A DNA stretch of 64,000 nucleotides from Escherichia phage Mangalyan: the sequence record OR449013; one strand, 5' to 3'. Made by a program: the position numbers and the translations under genes. Positions 1,424 through 44,697 of this stretch are shown piece after piece (the stretch's first letter is position 1; each line of letters starts with the position of its first letter). The notes under the pieces were generated by a model that was not told the origin of the DNA, searched no databases, and saw only the letters and a list, made by a program, of their open reading frames with translations.

Positions 1424-1532
1424 TGTCCGTATCACGGACAGTTAGTGTCCGTATTACGGGCAGATGTGTCCGCGTGACGGACAGTAGTGTCCGTATCACG
1501 GACAGTTAATAGTATCCGTTCCATGGCGAACA
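1424..1532. repeat. array of 17-bp palindromes TGTCCGTATCACGGACA (4 good copies plus 1 degenerate), 21-22 bp centre to centre
   Basis: read directly: copies at 1424-1440, 1446-1462, 1467-1483, 1488-1504, degenerate 1513-1532; each is a 7-bp inverted repeat around a 3-bp spacer. Confidence 0.85.
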
Positions 1533-1579
1533 TAAAACATACGAATCCTTATAGTATAGATATTTAAGTTTTTACTGGT

Positions 1580-1930
1580 CTAACCAGTTGTTGACATCCG
1601 AATAACTTCTTCTGGTGGCAAAACTTTGGAAAATGTGCATCTTTTACCTCTCCCTTGTGTGGATGTTTCAACCACTCCTGCACATTCTAAAGTTTTAACG
1701 CACGCTGCTGCTTTTGTTTTCTTTATCCCAACATCTGCTGCAATTTTCCTTGTGCTTGGTGTGAAGCGTGAATTTCCTCCAAGCTTATACCAGTTGTGCA
1801 GGTAGCAGTATACGATCTTGTCATACAAGTCAAGAACAACAACCTCCCCAGTTGTGTCATTCAAAACTTTTGACATAGATAGTATTTCAAGGGGGACTTT
1901 AAGATATAGCAGCTTATCCCCATCTTTCAT
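1580..1930 (-). CDS. hypothetical protein, possible helix-turn-helix DNA-binding protein
   Basis: 116-aa ORF; segment RKIAADVGIKKTKAAACVKTLECAGVV looks like an HTH region; gene ends beside the palindrome array. Confidence 0.45.
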   Translation of the reverse strand: MKDGDKLLYLKVPLEILSMSKVLNDTTGEVVVLDLYDKIVYCYLHNWYKLGGNSRFTPSTRKIAADVGIKKTKAAACVKTLECAGVVETSTQGRGKRCTFSKVLPPEEVIRMSTTG

Positions 1931-1977
1931 ATCTCCTGATTCTCCTTGTGTGGCAATTTTCTTTAAAATAGCAGGGA

Positions 1978-2532
1978 TTACTCCCTACTGTCAATATCAA
2001 AACTCATTGCAATACGGTATGCCTCCTCTAATGGTAAGAGTCTCCCCCACACATCCCAACCGACATCAAGCTGCCTGCCAAACAACTGTTGTGTGGTTCC
2101 GTGAGCATGACCGAACAGTTGGACTGATCCGTGAGGCTTTCTGTTCCACTTTGCAAACTGGTAATGGCTCATACAGATCAAATTCTTGTTGTGGCGAAGC
2201 TCGTAATAATCTACAACCTCATGACCGAACTCTTTCATAATTCTGACAGTCGTCCTTGTGTCATGGTTGCCACGAACAAGAATAATATGTCCGTTCAACA
2301 TATTTAGAATATCTGGAAGTAAGTTGTTGATATTCTTATCATTAGTGCACGCAATATCTCCCAAGTGGAACACAGTGTCTGCAGGTGACACAACAGAGTT
2401 CCACTTGGCGATGATTCCCGCATTCATACTGTCAAGATTGTGATCATACTGAGATCTGTGTTTTTGACATGAATCAAACTCCATGACCCGCTGATGGAGA
2501 AAGTGTGTGTCGCTTGTTACAAAGTATTTCAT
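1978..2532 (-). CDS. calcineurin-like metallophosphoesterase (candidate polynucleotide 3'-phosphatase or Ser/Thr phosphatase)
   Basis: motifs SDTHF (D-x-H), HLGDIA (GD), RGNHD (GNHD), GHAHG; start placed at internal ATG 2530-2532 (MKYF) with GAGGA RBS, directly after the stop of the upstream kinase ORF. Confidence 0.85.
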   Translation of the reverse strand: MKYFVTSDTHFLHQRVMEFDSCQKHRSQYDHNLDSMNAGIIAKWNSVVSPADTVFHLGDIACTNDKNINNLLPDILNMLNGHIILVRGNHDTRTTVRIMKEFGHEVVDYYELRHNKNLICMSHYQFAKWNRKPHGSVQLFGHAHGTTQQLFGRQLDVGWDVWGRLLPLEEAYRIAMSFDIDSRE

Positions 2533-2539
2533 ACATTCC

Positions 2540-2950
2540 TCATTTAAGTTTAATGCAGTTTTTAAGCTGGCGTTCCATACGATCCACAACCTTGTCTGGA
2601 ACATCATGAATGCTTTTATTACCGTGGCGGTTTTCAACCACGATCACGGTATAACTATACCCATGACTGATTGCCATGTCAACATATTCCTGCACATGTT
2701 TTTCTTTTGTAAACGTATTACTTACCACGATACGGTCGTATCCCATACGCATCATATCTTCTACGTTATCTTTGCACCATTTTGCTGCGAGTGTTACTTT
2801 ACTTGCATCCCAGTTGTAATTGCCGTCATCGTCATACCAGAACATGTCGTTCTCAAAATGTGGATACAGACCCTCTAAAGATAGCGCATTTGCCAGTGTT
2901 GATTTGCCAGACCCTGGTAGACCACGCACGATATATAGCATTTTAGACAT
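2540..2950 (-). CDS. P-loop kinase, polynucleotide 5'-kinase-like
   Basis: Walker A GLPGSGKST near N-terminus; start placed at ATG 2948-2950 (MSKMLYIV) preceded by GGAGGG; immediately upstream of the phosphoesterase gene. Confidence 0.65.
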   Translation of the reverse strand: MSKMLYIVRGLPGSGKSTLANALSLEGLYPHFENDMFWYDDDGNYNWDASKVTLAAKWCKDNVEDMMRMGYDRIVVSNTFTKEKHVQEYVDMAISHGYSYTVIVVENRHGNKSIHDVPDKVVDRMERQLKNCIKLK

Positions 2951-3010
2951 AGTGACCCTCCGTTTTAATTTCAACGGTAGTATACCTGACTGTTTTGTTA
3001 ATTTCAAGTG

Positions 3011-3040
3011 TTGACACTAGGTTATTTGTGTGGCAGGATA
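3011..3040 (+). promoter_or_regulatory. candidate sigma70-like promoter in divergent control region
   Basis: TTGACA at 3011-3016; -10 element poor; sits between divergent kinase and RNA ligase genes. Confidence 0.3.
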
Positions 3041-3050
3041 GACTGACAAA

Positions 3051-3986
3051 ATGACAAATGAGGAACGTATAATGAAGTATTTTAATGCAGACGACCTAGT
3101 TGACAAAGGTCTTGTAACCAGTAGGTATTACCCAGATCTCGGGCTAAAGATCTATAAATATGCCAGAAAAGTATTCTACAACAATCTGTGGCATTTGTCT
3201 CCGCGTTTACTGGAGTGCCGAGGTATTGTTGTTGGCAATGAGGGGAATGTTGTGGCATGGCCTTTCACAAAAGTATTCAACTTAGGAGAAAACTCCACCA
3301 ACCTACCGGACAGTAAACTTGTTACTGCGGTAGAGAAAAAGAACGGATTCCTCGGTGTGGTATCATCTCATAAAGGTGACCTATTGTTCTCAACAACCGG
3401 GTCTCTTGATTCTCCATATTGTAACCTTGCAAAGGAAACCATCCAAGAGCAATGTGGTAATTTAGATCTTATCAAGAAGGTTATGGGCAATGAAAACATG
3501 ACATTCATGTTTGAAATTTGTCACCCTTCAGATCCGCATATTGTTCAAGAAGACCATGGCGCATATTTGATAGGTTGCAGATATAATGATTCTGGAATAA
3601 TGCTACCAGAAGCAGCTTTAGATGGGATTGCCAAATACCTTGGTGCAAAACGTCCTCACACTGTGCGTGAAATTCCGTTCAGCTATGCAAAAGAGTTAGC
3701 TGCAGAAACAAGAGGTGAAGGATATATGATTCGTAAGCCTTACTACCCTTATGATCTGCAGTTGAAGATCAAGTCTCCATACTATCTGGCACGAAAGGCC
3801 GTAATGAGGGGTAAAGCTTGGAAGATTTGGGATGATGATATCTTTAAACGTGTTGACGAAGAGTTTTACGGCATGGTAAACTTCATTCGTAACAACTACA
3901 CAGAGGATGTATGGAACTGCCTCCTGGAGCAGGAACGCCGTGAGATACTTGACTGCTATTTCCACAACGAGGACTATATGCAATGA
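3051..3986 (+). CDS. rnlA: RNA ligase, Rnl1 family (T4 gp63-like)
   Basis: nucleotidyltransferase motif I K-x-N-G (VEKKNGFLG, Lys about residue 96); blocks LECRGIV and KVFNLGEN match the N-terminal region of T4 RNA ligase 1 as I recall it. Confidence 0.8.
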   Translation: MTNEERIMKYFNADDLVDKGLVTSRYYPDLGLKIYKYARKVFYNNLWHLSPRLLECRGIVVGNEGNVVAWPFTKVFNLGENSTNLPDSKLVTAVEKKNGFLGVVSSHKGDLLFSTTGSLDSPYCNLAKETIQEQCGNLDLIKKVMGNENMTFMFEICHPSDPHIVQEDHGAYLIGCRYNDSGIMLPEAALDGIAKYLGAKRPHTVREIPFSYAKELAAETRGEGYMIRKPYYPYDLQLKIKSPYYLARKAVMRGKAWKIWDDDIFKRVDEEFYGMVNFIRNNYTEDVWNCLLEQERREILDCYFHNEDYMQ

Positions 3987-4333
3987 AGAAGTTGATTGTG
4001 TGGCTGGATGACTTGAGAGATCCGTCAAATTACGGGCTCCAAGACGCTGTTTGGCTAAAGAATTCCTCCGAGTTTATAGATTTTATTAACGATAATAGAA
4101 AGCTCTACAGACGCGTTTCTGAGTGGCACATGGACAACGACCTTGGAGAGTTGTTCGAAGGGTACGATTGCCTATCTATGTTGGAGGAAAAATTTGTATT
4201 TGGTAAGCCCCCTGTAGTTGACAACGTGAAGATTTTCGTGCATACTTCTAACCCATCAGCGGCTCGTAAATTCATGCTTGCAGCTGACTCGTTTAAAAAG
4301 TTTGGAATAGAGATTAAACAAAACATCTACTGA
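3983..4333 (+). CDS. hypothetical protein (116 aa)
   Basis: ORF overlapping stop of rnl by 4 nt (translational coupling); no motif recognised. Confidence 0.55.
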   Translation: MKKLIVWLDDLRDPSNYGLQDAVWLKNSSEFIDFINDNRKLYRRVSEWHMDNDLGELFEGYDCLSMLEEKFVFGKPPVVDNVKIFVHTSNPSAARKFMLAADSFKKFGIEIKQNIY

Positions 4334-4341
4334 GGACACTT

Positions 4342-5103
4342 ATGCGACGACTGATTATTATCTCCGGTGCTGGTTTGAGCGCTGAATCTGGTATTCCCAC
4401 TTTCCGATCTGGTAGCACTGCAATGTGGGAGAATTTCAGCATCGATGAGGTGTGCAACATCCACACCTTTGCCAAGAACTACTACAAGGTGCATGACTTT
4501 TACAATGCACGTCGTGTAGCTCTAGGCGGTGTTGAGCCTAACCTTGCACATCTTCGGATCGCTGAGTGGTATTCCCGCTGGTCTGGTCGTGTGATCAACC
4601 TTACCACCAATGTAGATGATTTGCTGGAGCGTGCTGGTGTAAAACATGAAGATATTTTACATGTTCACGGGTATTTGCCAGAAATAGTCTATGAGGACGA
4701 TGAAGGAAGTGACGTCATTAAGGACATTGGATACTCTGAGGTAGATGCAGGAAAGTATACCTGGGTTAAACCTAATGTGGTGTTCTTCGGAGAAGTAGCT
4801 CCGAAGTATACAGACATGTATGACCTGTTGACTTCTCTTACAAGCAATGATATGGTTATCCTTGTAGGGTGTTCCAACACAGTTATCAATTTTAACTGGG
4901 AGCTATTCCCTGCCTGCAATAAGGGCACCAAACTGCTGATCGTTAACAAATACGACTCACAGCATCTAGAGGAGAATGGCATTTCACGTAGTGATATTTA
5001 CCAGTACGAGGATCGCGGCATCCCGGTTTGGTTTAACGGGGCGGTTGACGCTTTCTCTGATAAAACATTCATTGAGACCGTAGAAAACTTTATGGAACTT
5101 TAA
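4342..5103 (+). CDS. Sir2-family protein (NAD-dependent deacylase / ADP-ribosyltransferase fold)
   Basis: canonical Sir2 NAD-binding motif GAGLSAESGIPTFR at residues 9-22, TTNVDDL, HVHGYL (catalytic His), VVFFGE; no zinc-ribbon cysteines. Confidence 0.8.
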   Translation: MRRLIIISGAGLSAESGIPTFRSGSTAMWENFSIDEVCNIHTFAKNYYKVHDFYNARRVALGGVEPNLAHLRIAEWYSRWSGRVINLTTNVDDLLERAGVKHEDILHVHGYLPEIVYEDDEGSDVIKDIGYSEVDAGKYTWVKPNVVFFGEVAPKYTDMYDLLTSLTSNDMVILVGCSNTVINFNWELFPACNKGTKLLIVNKYDSQHLEENGISRSDIYQYEDRGIPVWFNGAVDAFSDKTFIETVENFMEL

Positions 5104-5116
5104 AAGGAGACCTTTA

Positions 5117-5830
5117 ATGCTGAATACTAAACTGATCGACAACCTGGAAAAACTGTCTCAGCCTGAAAACTACCTTTGGTCTGCCAACTGGGTGGAAAAC
5201 TGGAACCGTGTGGCAGCTAAAGTGAAAAAATCATACACACCATTCGAATTACAGCTTAGCTTCATTGAGGAAGAGTTCAATGAGGTTTTGGAAGAGCTGG
5301 AGAAAGGTGATGGTGGAGATCACCTGCTAAAAGAGGCCTGCGATCTTCACGTTGTCACAAGTTATGCCGCTTATCTTGTTAATGATAATCACGAAAAGTG
5401 GTCAAACCTGTTTGATAATCCACGAGGTCTTAAGTTCAAGATCGGTGAGTTCTATGATACACTGATCGCTGCGAAAAACACATCCAAGCAAAGAGCGTCA
5501 GCTTACCGCTTAGCGGAGTTGTCAACAGCTTTGCTGTTCCAGCTTCGCGGCGATGTGTGTGGGATGATGCGGAAGGTTCTCAAATCTAATGACAGCAAGT
5601 TTGCACGGATCAACCATCTACGATATTCTCACGGTGCCAGTGCAGATATGTCTACTGAATTGCTCATAGAGTTAGAGATTGAAGATCTTGAGCGTCGTTT
5701 TGGTGGTCGCTACGAAGGTTTCGTTGCTAAAGAGGAGTTCTACAACGGTAATAAAGTTATTATATTCCTTGACAGTAAAGGTAAGATTATGAAGCCTTCG
5801 AGCTTCAAGGATGTAACAGAGTATATTTAA
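5117..5830 (+). CDS. MazG-like nucleotide pyrophosphohydrolase (tentative)
   Basis: acidic cluster EEEFNEVLEELEKGDGGDHLLKEACDLHVV resembles the all-alpha NTP-PPase E-x2-E ... E-x2-D metal-binding pattern; 237 aa. Confidence 0.45.
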   Translation: MLNTKLIDNLEKLSQPENYLWSANWVENWNRVAAKVKKSYTPFELQLSFIEEEFNEVLEELEKGDGGDHLLKEACDLHVVTSYAAYLVNDNHEKWSNLFDNPRGLKFKIGEFYDTLIAAKNTSKQRASAYRLAELSTALLFQLRGDVCGMMRKVLKSNDSKFARINHLRYSHGASADMSTELLIELEIEDLERRFGGRYEGFVAKEEFYNGNKVIIFLDSKGKIMKPSSFKDVTEYI

Positions 5831-5836
5831 CAACAT

Positions 5837-5860
5837 AGCCGGGATTACCCGGCTTTACTT
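5837..5860 (+). terminator. rho-independent terminator
   Basis: stem AGCCGGG / CCCGGCT with 4-nt loop followed by T-rich tract. Confidence 0.6.
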
Positions 5861-5892
5861 ATTATGGAAAGTATGCAGTGAGGTAGTTAGTT

Positions 5893-6201
5893 ATGTACAA
5901 GCATTCCAGAGATCTTGAAAAAGATGCTGTGTTTGGCGACCAGATGAAGGAGCTGATCAAACTTATAGGTAGAATGGAAGATAAGTTTGACACTAAAATC
6001 TACATCGATAGCAAGATCTTCAACCACAAAATATGGACAAATGTGTGTGTTGGGCTACATGGTGATAAAGATATTGTAAATTTGGTTGTAATAAAGTTCA
6101 TAGTGTGGCAGAATAGGACTATACGTTATTCCGATCCACACTTACTTGTTTATCCTATAAAAGACCTACTACAGAAGGAGGACTGCAATGCCGTTATTTA
6201 A
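5893..6201 (+). CDS. hypothetical protein (102 aa)
   Basis: ORF after terminator with GAGG-containing leader. Confidence 0.5.
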   Translation: MYKHSRDLEKDAVFGDQMKELIKLIGRMEDKFDTKIYIDSKIFNHKIWTNVCVGLHGDKDIVNLVVIKFIVWQNRTIRYSDPHLLVYPIKDLLQKEDCNAVI

Positions 6202-6457
6202 TCTTGCTAAACCTGTAGAAGCACACCAGTTTGATGGAAGCTCTTCATCAGTATCTGATCTGCAACGGTGGATTGATACAGGTGTGTTTACATCGTCACC
6301 TGTTCGGACCAGAGATATTCGTCGCATGTGTGAGCTTGTTGAGCCGTTTGGTAACCTTGTCCTGTACCAGGGAGATTGGCTAGTTGACTTTATGGGAGAC
6401 TGGTTGGTAATGAGTAAAGAAGAGATGTTTAAAATTTTTAAGGAAGAGGCCGAGTAA
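6188..6457 (+). CDS. hypothetical protein (89 aa)
   Basis: ORF with GAAGGAGG upstream; overlaps neighbours by a few nt. Confidence 0.5.
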   Translation: MPLFNLAKPVEAHQFDGSSSSVSDLQRWIDTGVFTSSPVRTRDIRRMCELVEPFGNLVLYQGDWLVDFMGDWLVMSKEEMFKIFKEEAE

Positions 6458-7740
6458 TGCATCAAATCAAAACAACACTGTACGCACTGAACAAAGATGG
6501 CAGCTACCAACAGTGGAAAGTATTCACTGATGGCGAAAAGGTTATCGTAGAGTTTGGCAAGCTTGACGGTAAATTGCAGTACAAAGAGACGGTATGCACA
6601 CCTAAGAACGTAGGTCGTGCCAATGAGACTACAGCTGAGCAACAGGCCGAGCTTGAGGCTATCAGCAAGTGGGAAAAACAAGTCCGTCTGGGGTATGTTG
6701 AAAACATGGAAGATTGCGAGCAGGGTGTTGATCTTTTACCCATGCTGGTGCATGACTACCTGAAGCGTGGCAAGGCACTTAAACTACCTTGCTGGATCTT
6801 GCGTAAGTTAGATGGCCTTCGTCTGCTTGTTGTTTTCCAAAATGGTGAGCCTAAATTTATTTCCCGTGGTAATAAGTCCTACCCTATTCAAGGAAAGCTT
6901 TTAGAGCAACTTCGTTCTTTCCATTCTACCACTGGGATTAAACAACTTGATGGGGAACTATACATTCATGGTCTTCCTTTGCAGAAAATAGTGTCTCTTG
7001 CTAAACGGTGGCGCACACAGGAAGAGATTCAGGCCGAGATCGATAAAGACTATGAGGCAGATAAAAAACGCCGTCATGCCGCAATTAAGTCCGGCTTATC
7101 AACATACAAAAACTTCAACAAGGTAGATATTCCTGTCGATGTTGAGCCTGTTCGTGATGATTTGCGTTACGGTGGGTACTGTAGCTACGATCTGGAGTAT
7201 CACATTTTTGATATTCCTAGCGACAAGGTGTGGTGGGATCCCGAAACAGAGTCTGGACGCTGCAAGGATCTTATGGATGCAGAGGATACCGTTACCACTC
7301 TGATGCTTGACCATATCAAGGTTGTTGACGCAGAGCTTGCGTACACAGTTGATCATTGCGAAGAATCTGTTGGTATATTCATGTCCGAAGGATATGAAGG
7401 TACCATTATGCGTAACTTCTGTGGTAAATATGAGTACGGTCAGAGAACATCTGAAGCATTGAAATGGAAAAAGTTCAACGACGCAGAGGTGAAAGTTATT
7501 GACGTTGAGAAAGATAAGAATGATGAAGGTGTTCTTATCTGTGTTGACAAGGAAGGTATTGTTGTTAAAATGAAGATGAAAGGTACGCACGAGGAGCGTA
7601 GCTATGACAGAATGCAGGAAATGATCGGCAAGTTTGTCACCTTCAAATATCAAGCAAGGACAGAAGACAACAACTACCAATTCCCTGTCGGTATCTGCGT
7701 CCGAAATGTTAACCCAGACACTTGGGAGGTGCTGGAATAA
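6457..7740 (+). CDS. ATP-dependent polynucleotide ligase (probably DNA ligase)
   Basis: motif I KxDG (LRKLDGLR), EGTIMR (motif IV-like), LKWKKF (motif V K-x-K); 427 aa. Confidence 0.7.
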   Translation: MHQIKTTLYALNKDGSYQQWKVFTDGEKVIVEFGKLDGKLQYKETVCTPKNVGRANETTAEQQAELEAISKWEKQVRLGYVENMEDCEQGVDLLPMLVHDYLKRGKALKLPCWILRKLDGLRLLVVFQNGEPKFISRGNKSYPIQGKLLEQLRSFHSTTGIKQLDGELYIHGLPLQKIVSLAKRWRTQEEIQAEIDKDYEADKKRRHAAIKSGLSTYKNFNKVDIPVDVEPVRDDLRYGGYCSYDLEYHIFDIPSDKVWWDPETESGRCKDLMDAEDTVTTLMLDHIKVVDAELAYTVDHCEESVGIFMSEGYEGTIMRNFCGKYEYGQRTSEALKWKKFNDAEVKVIDVEKDKNDEGVLICVDKEGIVVKMKMKGTHEERSYDRMQEMIGKFVTFKYQARTEDNNYQFPVGICVRNVNPDTWEVLE

Positions 7741-7882
7741 TTTAGGTATGTTTAGTAGCCAATTGAATAAGTGTTTTCAATTTGCACCTACATATGCCCT
7801 GATGTATGAACTGTGCAACCTAGCCACACCACACAGTGGTGCTGATCGGGGCTCGTTATGAGTGAACTGGAGAGTATGAAAA

Positions 7883-42303: not shown

Positions 42304-42430
42304 CACACAATTAGTTGCCCGGCTAAAGTGCTGGGAGCACCCATAACACATCTTTCAACTAAATTTTCTACCACCACAATCACTTACCTCCCACACATGA
42401 CTGTTTGCTTGTTTAGTGAGCAGTCATGCC

Positions 42431-42458: not shown

Positions 42459-42654
42459 TAAGTTCTTCTCTTTTCTTTTACCGAGTAATTCGGGTTTTCT
42501 GTTCTCTTCGGTTTGAAGGGGTATGGAGATACACCTGAGTGAACAGGGTGAACAACCGAACCATTGGCTATGGCATTAGCATGGCGAAGCGGACGGGTGA
42601 CGAAAGAGGGGCCGGAGGACACCAGTCACTGCCATATGATATATGGGTGATAAC

Positions 42655-43193
42655 CTGAAGAGTCTGAATAAGTGTTTAAGTACCAGTCAGAGGAAAAGGT
42701 GAATGGTAGCCGAAGGGGGAGGGGGGTTACCTGCTTCTGTAAACATGCATCTGAAATACTACTTTAGATAACCTGAACCTGCCTTTCTGACAAATATTCC
42801 CTATTAAACTTGAATTATTTATAGAAAATACCACAACACCACTTAAGTCTTTGATTTTACACACAAATCTTACAGATATTAAACCTCTCTATTTAACATA
42901 CCTGTAACATATACTATACTCCACCTGTCTGATCAATTTCCCCAACTACATCCCCATATTTTCCCTGTCTGTACTACCCCTGCCCCGCCGGGAGTCCCGT
43001 CATATCTGGCTTTCCAGCAAATATCACACCCACAAATATCATCACCTGAAGAGGGTTTCATCCCATAATACATGCCTTACCTGAAGAGCGCTTCATACAC
43101 CACATAAATTTTTTAATTGACCCCCTCCCCGCCGCCGGAGAGGTTGGCTTTTCCCACACAGACCTGGAGAGTCAGCCAGAAATATCTGAAGAG
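42655..43193. repeat. four dispersed copies of about 15-bp motif CCTGAAGAG(G/C)G(T/C)TTCA
   Basis: CTGAAGAG at about 42655, 43046, 43081, 43186. Confidence 0.7.
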
Positions 43194-43750
43194 GGTCTAG
43201 TTCTGCCCTGTCATAAGCGGTAGCGACTGGAGTGCTGCTAGGCGGACGAAATGGGAATACTTCTCATTCTTATAACAATTCTCAAATATCGAGGCAGTGA
43301 GGCAAATTAATAGGTGAGGCCGTTCACACAGTGGCACAACATTTGCAACCTATCTTGTGGGATTGAATGAGAATACCTATCATTGTGAGAACTGTTATCA
43401 TTACGGGCAATTTAACATAATACCCATTATGCGCACCACTGGCGATACATACAGGGATTGATAACATGGGTTACTGTTTACGCACATAACAATTATATTT
43501 CTTACTATTTGTGTGGGATATAGTTAGCAGCCGATAGATTAGATATTAACCTGCAGACTTCTGACCGTCCAGACGTCTAAACGCCCACACACCAAGGATT
43601 ATACATACACTCCTGAATGTAAACAGGGCCGCAAAAATGCTACCATACAAGCTTGTAAATTTTTCATGCAGCACTTGACAAAGAGGAGAAAAACTTGTCT
43701 GACATAATGTGACCTAACTGACACAACATGACACTTTTACACACCTATTA

Positions 43751-43820
43751 GTTTACACACTGGATTGTTTACATTCCTGATTGTTCACATGCTAACCATT
43801 TACATGATTGACTGTTTACA
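43751..43820. repeat. iteron-like array: five copies of GTTTACA (variants GTTCACA, ATTTACA) at 15-16 bp spacing
   Basis: copies starting about 43751, 43767, 43783, 43798, 43814. Confidence 0.75.
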
Positions 43821-43833
43821 CACCGATAATCAG

Positions 43834-44083
43834 CCATGCCATTCGTTTGCATGACAATAATTATACATGACAATAATCGCACTGATCATAATTAGCATGA
43901 CATAATATAAAAGCAGGGCAACTATTAGCAGATCTATAGTTGCCTTGCTTGTTATGTCATGATTAACTAAATACAAGGCAACTATGATCTGATTAATAGT
44001 TTGCAGACAAACTATCACGGGGGTGATGGTTACTGCTTTTATATTATGTCGCGACTCCGTCGCGCCATGCCATTCGTTTGCAT
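43834..44083. repeat. direct 19-bp repeat CCATGCCATTCGTTTGCAT (two copies) flanking inverted repeats GGCAACTAT / ATAGTTGCC
   Basis: 19-mer at 43834-43852 and 44065-44083; palindrome arms at 43917-43925 / 43936-43944; second related palindrome about 43977-44005. Confidence 0.7.
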
Positions 44084-44697
44084 AGTTGCCTTATTGTTAC
44101 AGATAAAATAATTGTATTGTTAATTATTTCTTATCTTTCTATTAGTCATCTAATGATTTCAGTTAATATAGTAACGTACAGTAAACATTAGACGACTAAA
44201 GATTTCTATGCTTATGGTAACCTAACGTGACAATTCCAGACTGTTTACGAAAAATGTTGACACCTGGGCCGATTTATGTTATGCAGTTTACACGAATAAT
44301 TATTTTATGCAGGTATTGACTATTCCGTTATTCTATGGTTGGAATAAATGCTTAGCAGGCTATAGAATGGCGAGCGTACGTAAATTCTGAGATCTGGCGG
44401 CTATAGTTATACTCGATTTTTCACGTAGAAAACGCTTTTGTAGTTATGTAAGTGTATGACTTATAAAGTTGACAAGCTATTGAATATATGCATCAGGTTA
44501 AATTTTGTGCAAATGCTGCATTACGTGCAATTTTGGAAGGAAAAACGTGTAAAAATGGCCCTGCTACCACACAATGAAAAATTATGCAATAGTTATTTTA
44601 TATGTATGTTTGTACAGTGTGTGGGATTGATGGCTCGTCAATTATTCCACTTGCCAGGTAGGGCCGTTTATGGTAGGGGGAAGAGCAGACAAAAAGA

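Follow-up and report, generated by a model that had tools for sequence, protein, structure and literature searches.

An Rnl1-type RNA ligase, a stand-alone kinase and a metallophosphoesterase form a conserved gene module and a candidate RNA-repair system in Escherichia phage Mangalyan and other phages

We analysed a stretch of 64,000 nucleotides from Escherichia phage Mangalyan (sequence record OR449013; the whole stretch is called the window below), and in particular three adjacent genes near its start, which code for an RNA ligase, a P-loop kinase and a calcineurin-type phosphoesterase. An earlier note on this DNA, made from the sequence alone, had proposed that the three products together heal and seal broken RNA. 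The open reading frames (ORFs) lie where this note had placed them (Table 1), and the genes of the kinase and the phosphoesterase are divergent from that of the ligase, with an intervening gap of 100 bp (2951-3050). The start of the phosphoesterase is an internal ATG of a longer ORF that begins with TTG. For the ligase, the ATG at position 3072 (MKYFNADDL...) is a more likely start than position 3051, since a GAGGA Shine-Dalgarno sequence is found 7-11 nt upstream, the starts of the homologs agree with it, and a coding sequence of 918 bp is annotated in the related phage DrSchubert. The trio had been described as supplying the full chemistry of such repair. The three genes are there as described, but they make up only half of a cluster: the genes for a cREC protein, a sirtuin and a MazG-like protein, which come after the ligase, had been missed.

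Table 1. Genes and sequence features at the locus (positions in the window; aa, amino acids)
Feature	Position	Strand	Basis or remark
Small helix-turn-helix (HTH) protein (DUF6945 / HTH_36)	1580-1930	-	directly downstream of the phosphoesterase, same strand
Calcineurin-like binuclear metallophosphoesterase, aq_1665 subfamily, 184 aa	1978-2532	-	Metallophos_2, Metallophos, phrog_547; proposed 3'-end healing (2',3'-cyclic phosphodiesterase / 3'-phosphatase; predicted activity)
Stand-alone P-loop polynucleotide 5'-kinase-like protein, 136 aa	2540-2950	-	AAA_33
Promoter-like site TTGAAA-17-TATACT, upstream of the kinase-phosphoesterase pair, in the divergent intergenic region	2979-3007	-	consensus scan, 10/12 matches
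Rnl1-type ATP-dependent RNA ligase, 311 aa from 3051 (more likely 304 aa from 3072)	3051-3986	+	RNA_lig_T4_1
cREC (cyclic-phosphate-processing receiver-like) protein, 116 aa	3983-4333	+	cREC_REC PF20274 E=3e-15; phrog_1479
Sir2-family sirtuin, 253 aa	4342-5103	+	Pfam SIR2 E=5.5e-27
MazG-like nucleotide pyrophosphohydrolase candidate, 237 aa	5117-5830	+	phrog_671 E=6e-22
Terminator-like GC-rich hairpin AGCCGGG-ATTA-CCCGGCT	5837-5854	.	terminator scan
ATP-dependent DNA ligase, 427 aa, KLDGLR motif	6457-7740	+	Pfam match in the C-terminal third only (residues 285-416)

The ligase is of the Rnl1 type, as had been noted, and this can be seen from a full-length Pfam match, from a profile match to T4 Rnl1 and from a match of the fold. 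The Pfam family RNA_lig_T4_1 (PF09511) is matched with 54.8 bits against a gathering cut-off of 28.3 (E=1.5e-14), over profile positions 1-227 of 227. A profile of 30 diverse homologs finds T4 Rnl1 (2C5U) in the PDB at E=3.3e-13. Note that single-sequence phmmer searches of the PDB gave nothing useful for either the ligase or the kinase, and that homolog profiles were needed for both. The KxNG motif that had been pointed out is K96-K-N98-G99, and R57, K74, F76, K96-x-N98-G99, E155, E223-G224, K239 and K241 are invariant across the 30 homologs. These positions comprise the lysine nucleophile of motif I (KxxG), motifs III, IV and V, and the Arg, Lys and Phe upstream that are specific to Rnl1. 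The claim that the sequence blocks are colinear with those of T4 gp63 also holds: the alignment covers T4 Rnl1 residues 51-249 and puts R57, K74, F76, K96, E155, E223-G224, K239 and K241 on T4 R54, K75, F77, K99, E159, E227-G228, K240 and K242, residues which, with their numbering, we take to be essential from the mutational literature on T4 Rnl1.

The AlphaFold (AF2) model of the ligase has a pLDDT of 90.8. When it was compared with solved structures using Foldseek, T4 Rnl1 took ranks 1-3 (E about 3e-12, TM 0.61-0.65), followed by the ligase domains of fungal Trl1 (E about 5e-12) and by archaeal Rnl3. Very probably, the protein works as an RNA ligase of the Rnl1 type. The protein database contains at least 1,680 of its relatives, most of them about 300 aa long and encoded on phage-sized contigs. 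Members of this clade are present in 759 of 50,697 GenBank phage records, including those of the therapy-relevant Pakpunavirus, Vequintavirinae and Phapecoctavirus.

For the kinase, we find the Pfam domain AAA_33 with 42.5 bits (cut-off 27, E=1e-10), in agreement with the P-loop kinase that had been proposed. The protein belongs to a family of stand-alone proteins of about 130 aa with at least 7,989 matches and the signature RGxPGSGKST ... (E/S)AD ... SNTF ... ENRHG ... H. It groups with polynucleotide kinases rather than with nucleoside monophosphate kinases, and in structure it comes closest to three kinases of RNA repair, T4 Pnk, CthPnk and Pnkp1. Profile searches of solved structures gave weak matches that all go in one direction: Pnkp1 (4e-4), PSTK (5e-4), T4 Pnk (1e-3) and Clostridium thermocellum Pnk (1.5e-3) are matched over most or all of the domain, whereas adenylate kinases are matched in the P-loop only. 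Among 30 homologs, G10 and G15-K16 of the P-loop as well as D35 are invariant, and S17 is nearly so. A comparison with hhalign to the kinase domain of a T4-type Pnkp from Streptomyces phage Enygma (AAA_33 + HAD_PNKP) gives a probability of 94.6%. In this alignment D35 falls on the general-base Asp (RDD motif; T4 D35, CthPnk D38), and the invariant R108 of the lid (ENRHG motif) falls on the lid Arg of the T4-like Enygma enzyme. From these similarities, the protein is probably a polynucleotide 5'-kinase.

The third protein is a calcineurin-type phosphoesterase, again as suggested: it matches Pfam Metallophos_2 (29.1 bits, cut-off 27, E=1e-6) and Metallophos (E=4e-6, likewise above its cut-off), and in PHROG it matches phrog_547, "phosphoesterase" (E=2e-51). 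The metal-ligand motifs D8-x-H10, G58-D59, G88-N89-H90, H123 and G141-H142-x-H144 are kept in 36-37 of 37 homologs, and two family-specific residues, H13 and R26, in all 37. The residue after G88-N89-H90 is D91, which gives the motif GNHD. The closest solved relative is aq_1665 of Aquifex (PDB 1XM7; E=2e-10 with the single sequence, 1.6e-23 with the profile), and the distant matches of the profile in the PDB are GpdQ (1e-3) and YfcE (0.017). In the same PDB search, neither lambda-phosphatase nor CthPnkp was matched, and the protein does not group with protein Ser/Thr phosphatases. There is also a weak NCBIfam similarity to the ligase-associated phosphoesterase PdeM. We were not able to find any report in the searchable literature on the activity of aq_1665 or of this phosphoesterase subfamily.

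Thus, the phosphatase is of the binuclear-metal type and has no HAD domain, and the split, non-T4 architecture that had been described is real. The supposed likeness to bacterial Pnkp-type healing has to be restricted. It holds at the level of the superfamily, but not at the level of the family, where the protein belongs to the aq_1665 subfamily with its GNHD motif and not to the lambda-phosphatase-like clade of CthPnkp.

We then looked at the genes found around ligase homologs in 11 GenBank phages and 80 IMG/VR contigs. All ORFs were searched with iterated profiles of the window proteins, partners in the IMG/VR loci were counted within 7 kb of the ligase, and the ligases were grouped into 40 clusters at 60% identity. 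The kinase accompanies the ligase in 72 of the 80 IMG/VR loci (34 of the 40 clusters) and the phosphoesterase in 62 (32 clusters), and in 57 loci both are present. The grouping of the three genes is far beyond what could be expected by chance, and the trio is a conserved module. The partners share the strand of the ligase in 61/62 and 59/60 cases, the median gap to the ligase is 0 bp for the kinase and about 125 bp for the phosphoesterase, and the commonest orders are phosphoesterase-ligase-kinase (36 loci) and kinase-ligase-phosphoesterase (18 loci). Since the divergent layout of the rV5-like phages, to which the window belongs, is the single exception to the same-strand rule, it represents a local inversion. 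The trio of Vibrio phage VnaP forms an isolated block flanked by the portal and terminase genes, with no DNA ligase nearby. Of 91 loci, 31 have tRNA genes at a distance of up to 7 kb from the ligase, a number that is only suggestive because no proper background was computed for it.

In several phages the linkage goes as far as gene fusion. Kinase and ligase form a single polypeptide of about 430 aa (AAA_33 + RNA_lig_T4_1) in 12 loci; near these fusion genes, no replacement phosphatase could be recognised. Staphylococcus phage PT1-1 encodes a protein of 752 aa (locus 5606-7864) which combines a kinase, a metallophosphoesterase and an Rnl1 ligase, and whose only annotation is "putative serine/threonine protein phosphatase". 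The phosphoesterase domain of this protein comes from another subfamily (hhalign probability against the phosphoesterase family of the window: 10%). More distant relatives of the ligase, in Streptomyces and Microcystis phages, are paired with a canonical T4-type kinase-HAD Pnkp. The aq_1665-type phosphoesterase therefore fills the slot that is taken by the HAD phosphatase in those phages.

What could the function of such a module be? We suggest heal-and-seal RNA repair that works like that of T4 Pnkp and Rnl1, assembled from parts that are not orthologous to them. The substrates and the division of labour that we infer are as follows: the small stand-alone kinase would phosphorylate the 5'-OH end, the aq_1665-type metallophosphoesterase would open and remove the cyclic phosphate or the 3'-phosphate to give a 3'-OH, and the Rnl1-type ligase would join the two ends through an adenylate intermediate on lysine 96. 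The module would be dispensable on a laboratory host that has no defences, and would pay off against defences or toxins that nick RNA, for example those of the anticodon nuclease type. We give this interpretation as a whole a probability of roughly 0.6. The assignment of 3'-end healing to the phosphoesterase seems to us slightly better than an even guess, and we see equal chances for and against the physiological target being tRNA damaged by a defence system or a toxin.

The expected dispensability can be compared with data from a close relative. In phage Bas54 (MaxBurger), 97.5% identical to the region, transposon insertions have been mapped on E. coli K-12 (2025 preprint, doi 10.1101/2025.11.20.689424, Extended Data Table 8). 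Insertions were found at 56 of 60 TA sites in the gene of the RNA ligase (bas54_0209), 33 of 36 in that of the polynucleotide kinase (bas54_0210), 26 of 27 in that of the phosphoesterase (bas54_0211), 48 of 51 in that of the sirtuin (bas54_0207) and 35 of 40 in that of the MazG-like protein (bas54_0206), and all five are classified as Non-essential. The cREC gene (bas54_0208, 16 of 21 sites) is the only gene of the cluster scored as Intermediate. These data fit an accessory, conditionally useful function. A counter-defence role of the module is plausible, although the Bas54 data do not demonstrate it. That phenotypes of this kind are detectable by the transposon method can be seen in the T-even phage Bas37, which, in the part of the preprint's data covered here, needs its polynucleotide kinase in one condition (log2 fold change -1.90, q=0).

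Several observations speak against RNA repair as the function, or at least make it less certain. First, an invariant Thr (T116) is found in the ligase at the position of the essential K119 of T4, and the C-terminal domain is short and helical, with about 60 aa as compared to 120 aa in the tRNA-specificity domain of T4 Rnl1; the protein ends about 65 aa past motif V. The ligase also scores only 37.4 bits with the NCBIfam equivalog model for T4 RnlA (TIGR02308), far under the cut-off of 242. For these three reasons the ligase, although of the Rnl1 type, is not an ortholog of T4 RnlA. Second, the kinase has no Arg at the position of the substrate-binding R38 of T4 Pnk (R41 in CthPnk). Its family has hydrophobic residues there (E-A-D-M-F-F), and the hhalign alignment has a gap opposite the Arg of the DDIR motif. 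The polynucleotide-kinase assignment stands, with one defining residue missing. Third, when the six Bas54 genes were followed in one comparison of K-12 with a clinical isolate (CFE303 or CFE311), none was depleted in the part of the same preprint's data considered here (log2 fold change +0.13 to +0.43, adjusted p >=0.75). Finally, we found no biochemistry on this ligase clade, kinase family or phosphoesterase subfamily in the searchable literature.

The phosphoesterase presents a further difficulty. When loci were collected starting from the phosphoesterase, only 9 of 48 clusters had the ligase and 11 of 48 had the kinase within 6 kb. This search was seeded from a narrower alignment, the broader and more diverse one being too divergent. 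Other members of the family adjoin genes for UDG, an SMC-like ATPase, YqeY or Nudix proteins, or a DNA ligase together with Macro and NAD-salvage (NAMPT) genes. The phosphoesterase family overall is thus not dedicated to RNA repair. The phosphoesterases that are linked to a ligase, including that of the window, do group together in a neighbour-joining tree: the label of the nearest neighbour is concordant in 67 of 85 cases, a value reached by 0 of 2,000 permutations, with shared phage ancestry as a confounding factor. In the DNA-ligase context, an unannotated neighbour of 364 aa was considered as a hidden RNA ligase and rejected (hhalign probability 0.6%, no PHROG).

The locus itself was already known, both from annotation and from a published computational prediction. 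Positions 1500-5200 of the window are 97.5-98.8% identical over their full length to many Escherichia Vequintavirus (rV5-like) phages in GenBank, among them JLBYU08, HdK5 and the BASEL phages DrSchubert and MaxBurger, and the records of these relatives already contain the names RNA ligase, polynucleotide kinase (or AAA ATPase), putative phosphoesterase and Sir2-like protein. The neighbourhood in phage V5 has been predicted to be an RNA-repair system (Iyer et al. 2022, Viruses 14:1977, PMC9503650, section 3.7.3). All six components of this V5-type neighbourhood, namely the sirtuin, ligase, cREC, kinase, MazG and calcineurin-like proteins, are found within 1978-5830. In a study on Pakpunavirus, the kinase is said to lack a "3'-phosphatase domain", and the phosphoesterase gene was left unlinked to it (PMC12846349). 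The authors of both papers have independently arrived at the same RNA-repair interpretation. What we add is the ligase-centred census, in which the phosphoesterase turns out to be a regular partner, and the finding that, by structure, the kinase belongs with the polynucleotide kinases.

The three genes that come after the ligase lead to a different explanation, proposed by Iyer et al. (PMC9503650): a yeast-like, NAD+-dependent route could be the real unit, with the phosphoesterase being peripheral. Here, cREC would turn the 2',3'-cyclic phosphate into a 2'-phosphate by opening it, the 5' end would be phosphorylated by the kinase, and the ligase would seal the RNA and leave a 2'-phosphate at the junction. 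The sirtuin would then strip off this phosphate in the manner of Tpt1/KptA, through ADP-ribosyl transfer, and the by-products would be cleared by MazG or the phosphoesterase. It is true that ligase, cREC, sirtuin and MazG are tightly packed up to the terminator-like hairpin, with an overlap of 4 bp followed by gaps of 8 and 13 bp, that the model of the ligase fits the fungal Trl1 ligase domains about as well as T4 Rnl1, and that the same set of genes recurs together with the ligase in PVP-SE1-like and related phages. In the cREC protein, acidic residues like those of REC domains are kept (LDDLRD, HMDNDLG), as is an HTSNP motif; the function of this protein is a prediction only (PMC7824862; PMC9503650). 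The sirtuin retains GAGxSxxSGIPxFR, TTNVD and the catalytic histidine of the HG motif, and has no CxxC...CxxC zinc module (three isolated cysteines only, with no cysteine pair in residues 110-160); its matches to the NCBIfam models of NAD-dependent deacylases are all below the cut-off. For the MazG-like protein there is no Pfam match and no sequence match in the PDB, and the name rests on the PHROG match; Iyer et al. also place it in the MazG superfamily.

On the other hand, in the census cREC accompanies the ligase in only 12 of the 80 IMG/VR loci (4 of the 40 clusters), the sirtuin in 11 (3 clusters) and the MazG-like protein in 13 (3 clusters), far fewer than the phosphoesterase and the kinase. 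The ligase clade in general can therefore not depend on cREC or the sirtuin. These three genes are lineage-specific add-ons of the ligase, confined to Vequintavirinae, Stephanstirmvirinae and a few metagenomic lineages, and in Phapecoctavirus the sirtuin is absent although cREC and MazG are kept. Furthermore, 2'-phosphotransferase activity has been demonstrated for no sirtuin, and cREC is uncharacterised (PMC9503650). We consider it unlikely that the NAD+-dependent route is the real unit. Somewhat more unlikely still seems the specific idea, likewise from Iyer et al., that the six-gene cluster of the rV5-like phages runs a eukaryote-style NAD+-dependent tRNA ligation beside or instead of the phosphoesterase route, with cREC as a new kind of 2',3'-cyclic phosphodiesterase and the zinc-less sirtuin as an RNA 2'-phosphotransferase that is functionally analogous to Tpt1/KptA.

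Potentially, the kinase and the phosphoesterase could also process DNA ends, or metabolites of nucleotide or NAD-ADP-ribose metabolism, for example by making DNA breaks that carry 3'-phosphate and 5'-OH groups ready for the DNA ligase nearby, and their proximity to the RNA ligase would then only reflect a shared region of early genes. T4 Pnk acts on DNA as well, an ATP-dependent DNA ligase is found in the window (Table 1), and 42 of the 80 loci have one no further than 7 kb from the RNA ligase. In one lineage the phosphoesterase gene overlaps that of a DNA ligase, next to genes for Macro, PRPP synthetase and NAMPT, several phages have NAD-salvage genes on the flanks of the module, and the similarity to PdeM points the same way. 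However, it is the RNA ligase and not the DNA ligase to which the kinase is adjacent, overlapping or fused, the block of three genes in VnaP has no DNA ligase in its vicinity, and the trifunctional protein of the Staphylococcus phage couples a kinase and a phosphoesterase to an Rnl1-type domain. Taken together, we regard this explanation as improbable.

That tail-fibre attachment, a non-catalytic role known from T4 gp63, is the main reason why the ligase is retained, its neighbours being unrelated to it, would agree with the name "RNA ligase and tail fiber attachment catalyst" in many records (which comes from the role of T4 gp63) and with the poor tolerance of rnlA to insertions in T4 and in Bas37 (doi 10.1101/2025.11.20.689424 for Bas37), but we reject it as extremely improbable, since the catalytic residues are all invariant across the clade, its linkage to enzymes of end healing is tight and amounts to fusion in places, and the gene is non-essential in Bas54, so that it is not needed to build infective virions.

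Regarding signals for transcription, the promoter-like site in the divergent intergenic region is weak evidence, as 18 such sites are found in the region against 12.8 +/- 4.4 expected. The terminator-like hairpin has a stem of 7 bp with 6 GC pairs and begins 7 nt past the stop of the MazG-like gene; there are only 2 such sites in 5.1 kb, and it appears to close the series of ligase, cREC, sirtuin and MazG. The small HTH protein next to the phosphoesterase is found in the rV5-like lineage only. Its ortholog in Bas54 is scored "Intermediate" in fitness with low insertion counts, and it could be a regulator of the region.

We found no tRNA genes and no Rfam families in the window; judging from the DrSchubert record, the tRNA cluster of the rV5-like phages is located just beyond its start. 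One gene there attracted our attention. It is a tRNA-like gene of 97-99 nt, annotated as tRNA-Lys (AAA), which lies in DrSchubert at 667-765, just upstream of the window start, and at 270-367 of a second locus. ARAGORN assigns no type to it. Visual inspection shows an anticodon loop UUUUUAA (anticodon UUU), an anticodon stem that is mismatched and a variable arm that is unusually long for a lysine tRNA. The target of PrrC is tRNA-Lys(UUU), and so is that of PARIS. An rV5-like phage may thus pair a nuclease-resistant replacement tRNA with repair enzymes.

In other phages, genes of NAD+ salvage (nicotinamide phosphoribosyltransferase, PRPP synthetase) recur no more than a few kb away from either the ligase-kinase pair or the phosphoesterase, and a Macro domain gene is found there in two loci. 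Such a region may be a hotspot of counter-defence genes. Some database entries should be read with care: between 18 and 23 GenBank records labelled as Campylobacter phages, with C. jejuni given as the host (e.g. MG065655 "Campylobacter phage C2" and MG065682 "A112b"), are, in the region of the module, 97-99% identical to E. coli rV5-like phages, which suggests mislabelled or contaminating phages in that data set.

Far from the module, positions 42620-44450 of the window, about 1.8 kb, contain nearly no ORF of at least 50 aa and coincide with a switch of the coding strand and of the GC skew, and the sequence at 43.6-44.8 kb is AT-rich (GC 0.35-0.36). The region has a hairpin and further copies of GGCAACTAT/ATAGTTGCC (43911-43950, 43974-43985, 44082-44099, 42312-42324), an exact direct repeat of 20 nt (at 43833 and 44064) and four copies similar to ACCTGAAGAG. 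It probably corresponds to an intergenic region of about 2 kb in Bas54 that tolerates no transposon insertions (doi 10.1101/2025.11.20.689424), and is a candidate for an origin of replication or a regulatory region.

What makes RNA repair by the trio worth considering beyond this phage is the size of the ligase clade, which is constantly accompanied by a stand-alone kinase and by a phosphoesterase that is uncharacterised. Defences and toxins that cleave tRNA are now seen as widespread and include PrrC, RloC, PARIS, retron-associated nucleases, Cas13 and colicins. To our knowledge, T4 Pnkp/Rnl1 is the only RNA-repair counter-measure of a phage with experimental support. If 3'-end healing is truly the task of the phosphoesterase, this enzyme would represent a third class of phosphatases that heal RNA ends, recruited independently of the HAD and the lambda-phosphatase-like enzymes, and it would supply the 3'-phosphatase that was noted to be missing from the kinase (PMC12846349).

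How does the module compare with known systems? The nearest solved relative of the phosphoesterase, Aquifex aeolicus aq_1665 (1XM7), comes from structural genomics and adds nothing on the substrate. In the Pnkp-Hen1 system of Clostridium thermocellum, three activities are found in one polypeptide, with a lambda-phosphatase-like domain (GNHE), an Rnl4 ligase and a Hen1 methyltransferase as the partner. Compared with this system and with Pnkp1-Rnl-Hen1 of Capnocytophaga, the phage has three separate genes, an aq_1665-type phosphoesterase with GNHD and an Rnl1-type ligase; no Hen1 was found among the six proteins of the cluster in Pfam, NCBIfam and PHROG scans. Iyer et al. 2022 described this very locus, in this group of phages, as a "Type 2" neighbourhood (Escherichia phage V5 / Proteus phage Mydo). 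While that description is centred on the sirtuin and calls the phosphoesterase "occasional", our census gives the reverse picture, with the kinase and the phosphoesterase being constant and the sirtuin, cREC and MazG rare. With the fungal and plant system of Trl1 (ligase-kinase-CPD) and Tpt1, the phage cluster has in common an Rnl1-type ligase of similar fold, a P-loop polynucleotide kinase as a partner and an NAD+-using enzyme, here the sirtuin, nearby.

The most direct comparison is that with T4 Pnkp (PseT) and Rnl1 (RnlA, gp63), which counter PrrC. Unlike in T4, the kinase is a separate protein of 136 aa that has no HAD phosphatase domain, and a binuclear metallophosphoesterase is the candidate for 3'-end healing. 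Compared with T4 Rnl1, the ligase is shorter by about 70 aa, with a much smaller C-terminal domain and Thr in place of K119, and its gene, in contrast to T4 rnlA, is dispensable for plaque formation in Bas54. On the other hand, the catalytic residues of the Rnl1-type ligase are the same in both systems, and the two kinases fall into one structural clade and share the P-loop and the general-base Asp. They also follow the same logic, that is, a 5' kinase, a 3' phosphatase (here the proposed one) and a ligase in a lytic phage that carries tRNA genes as well.

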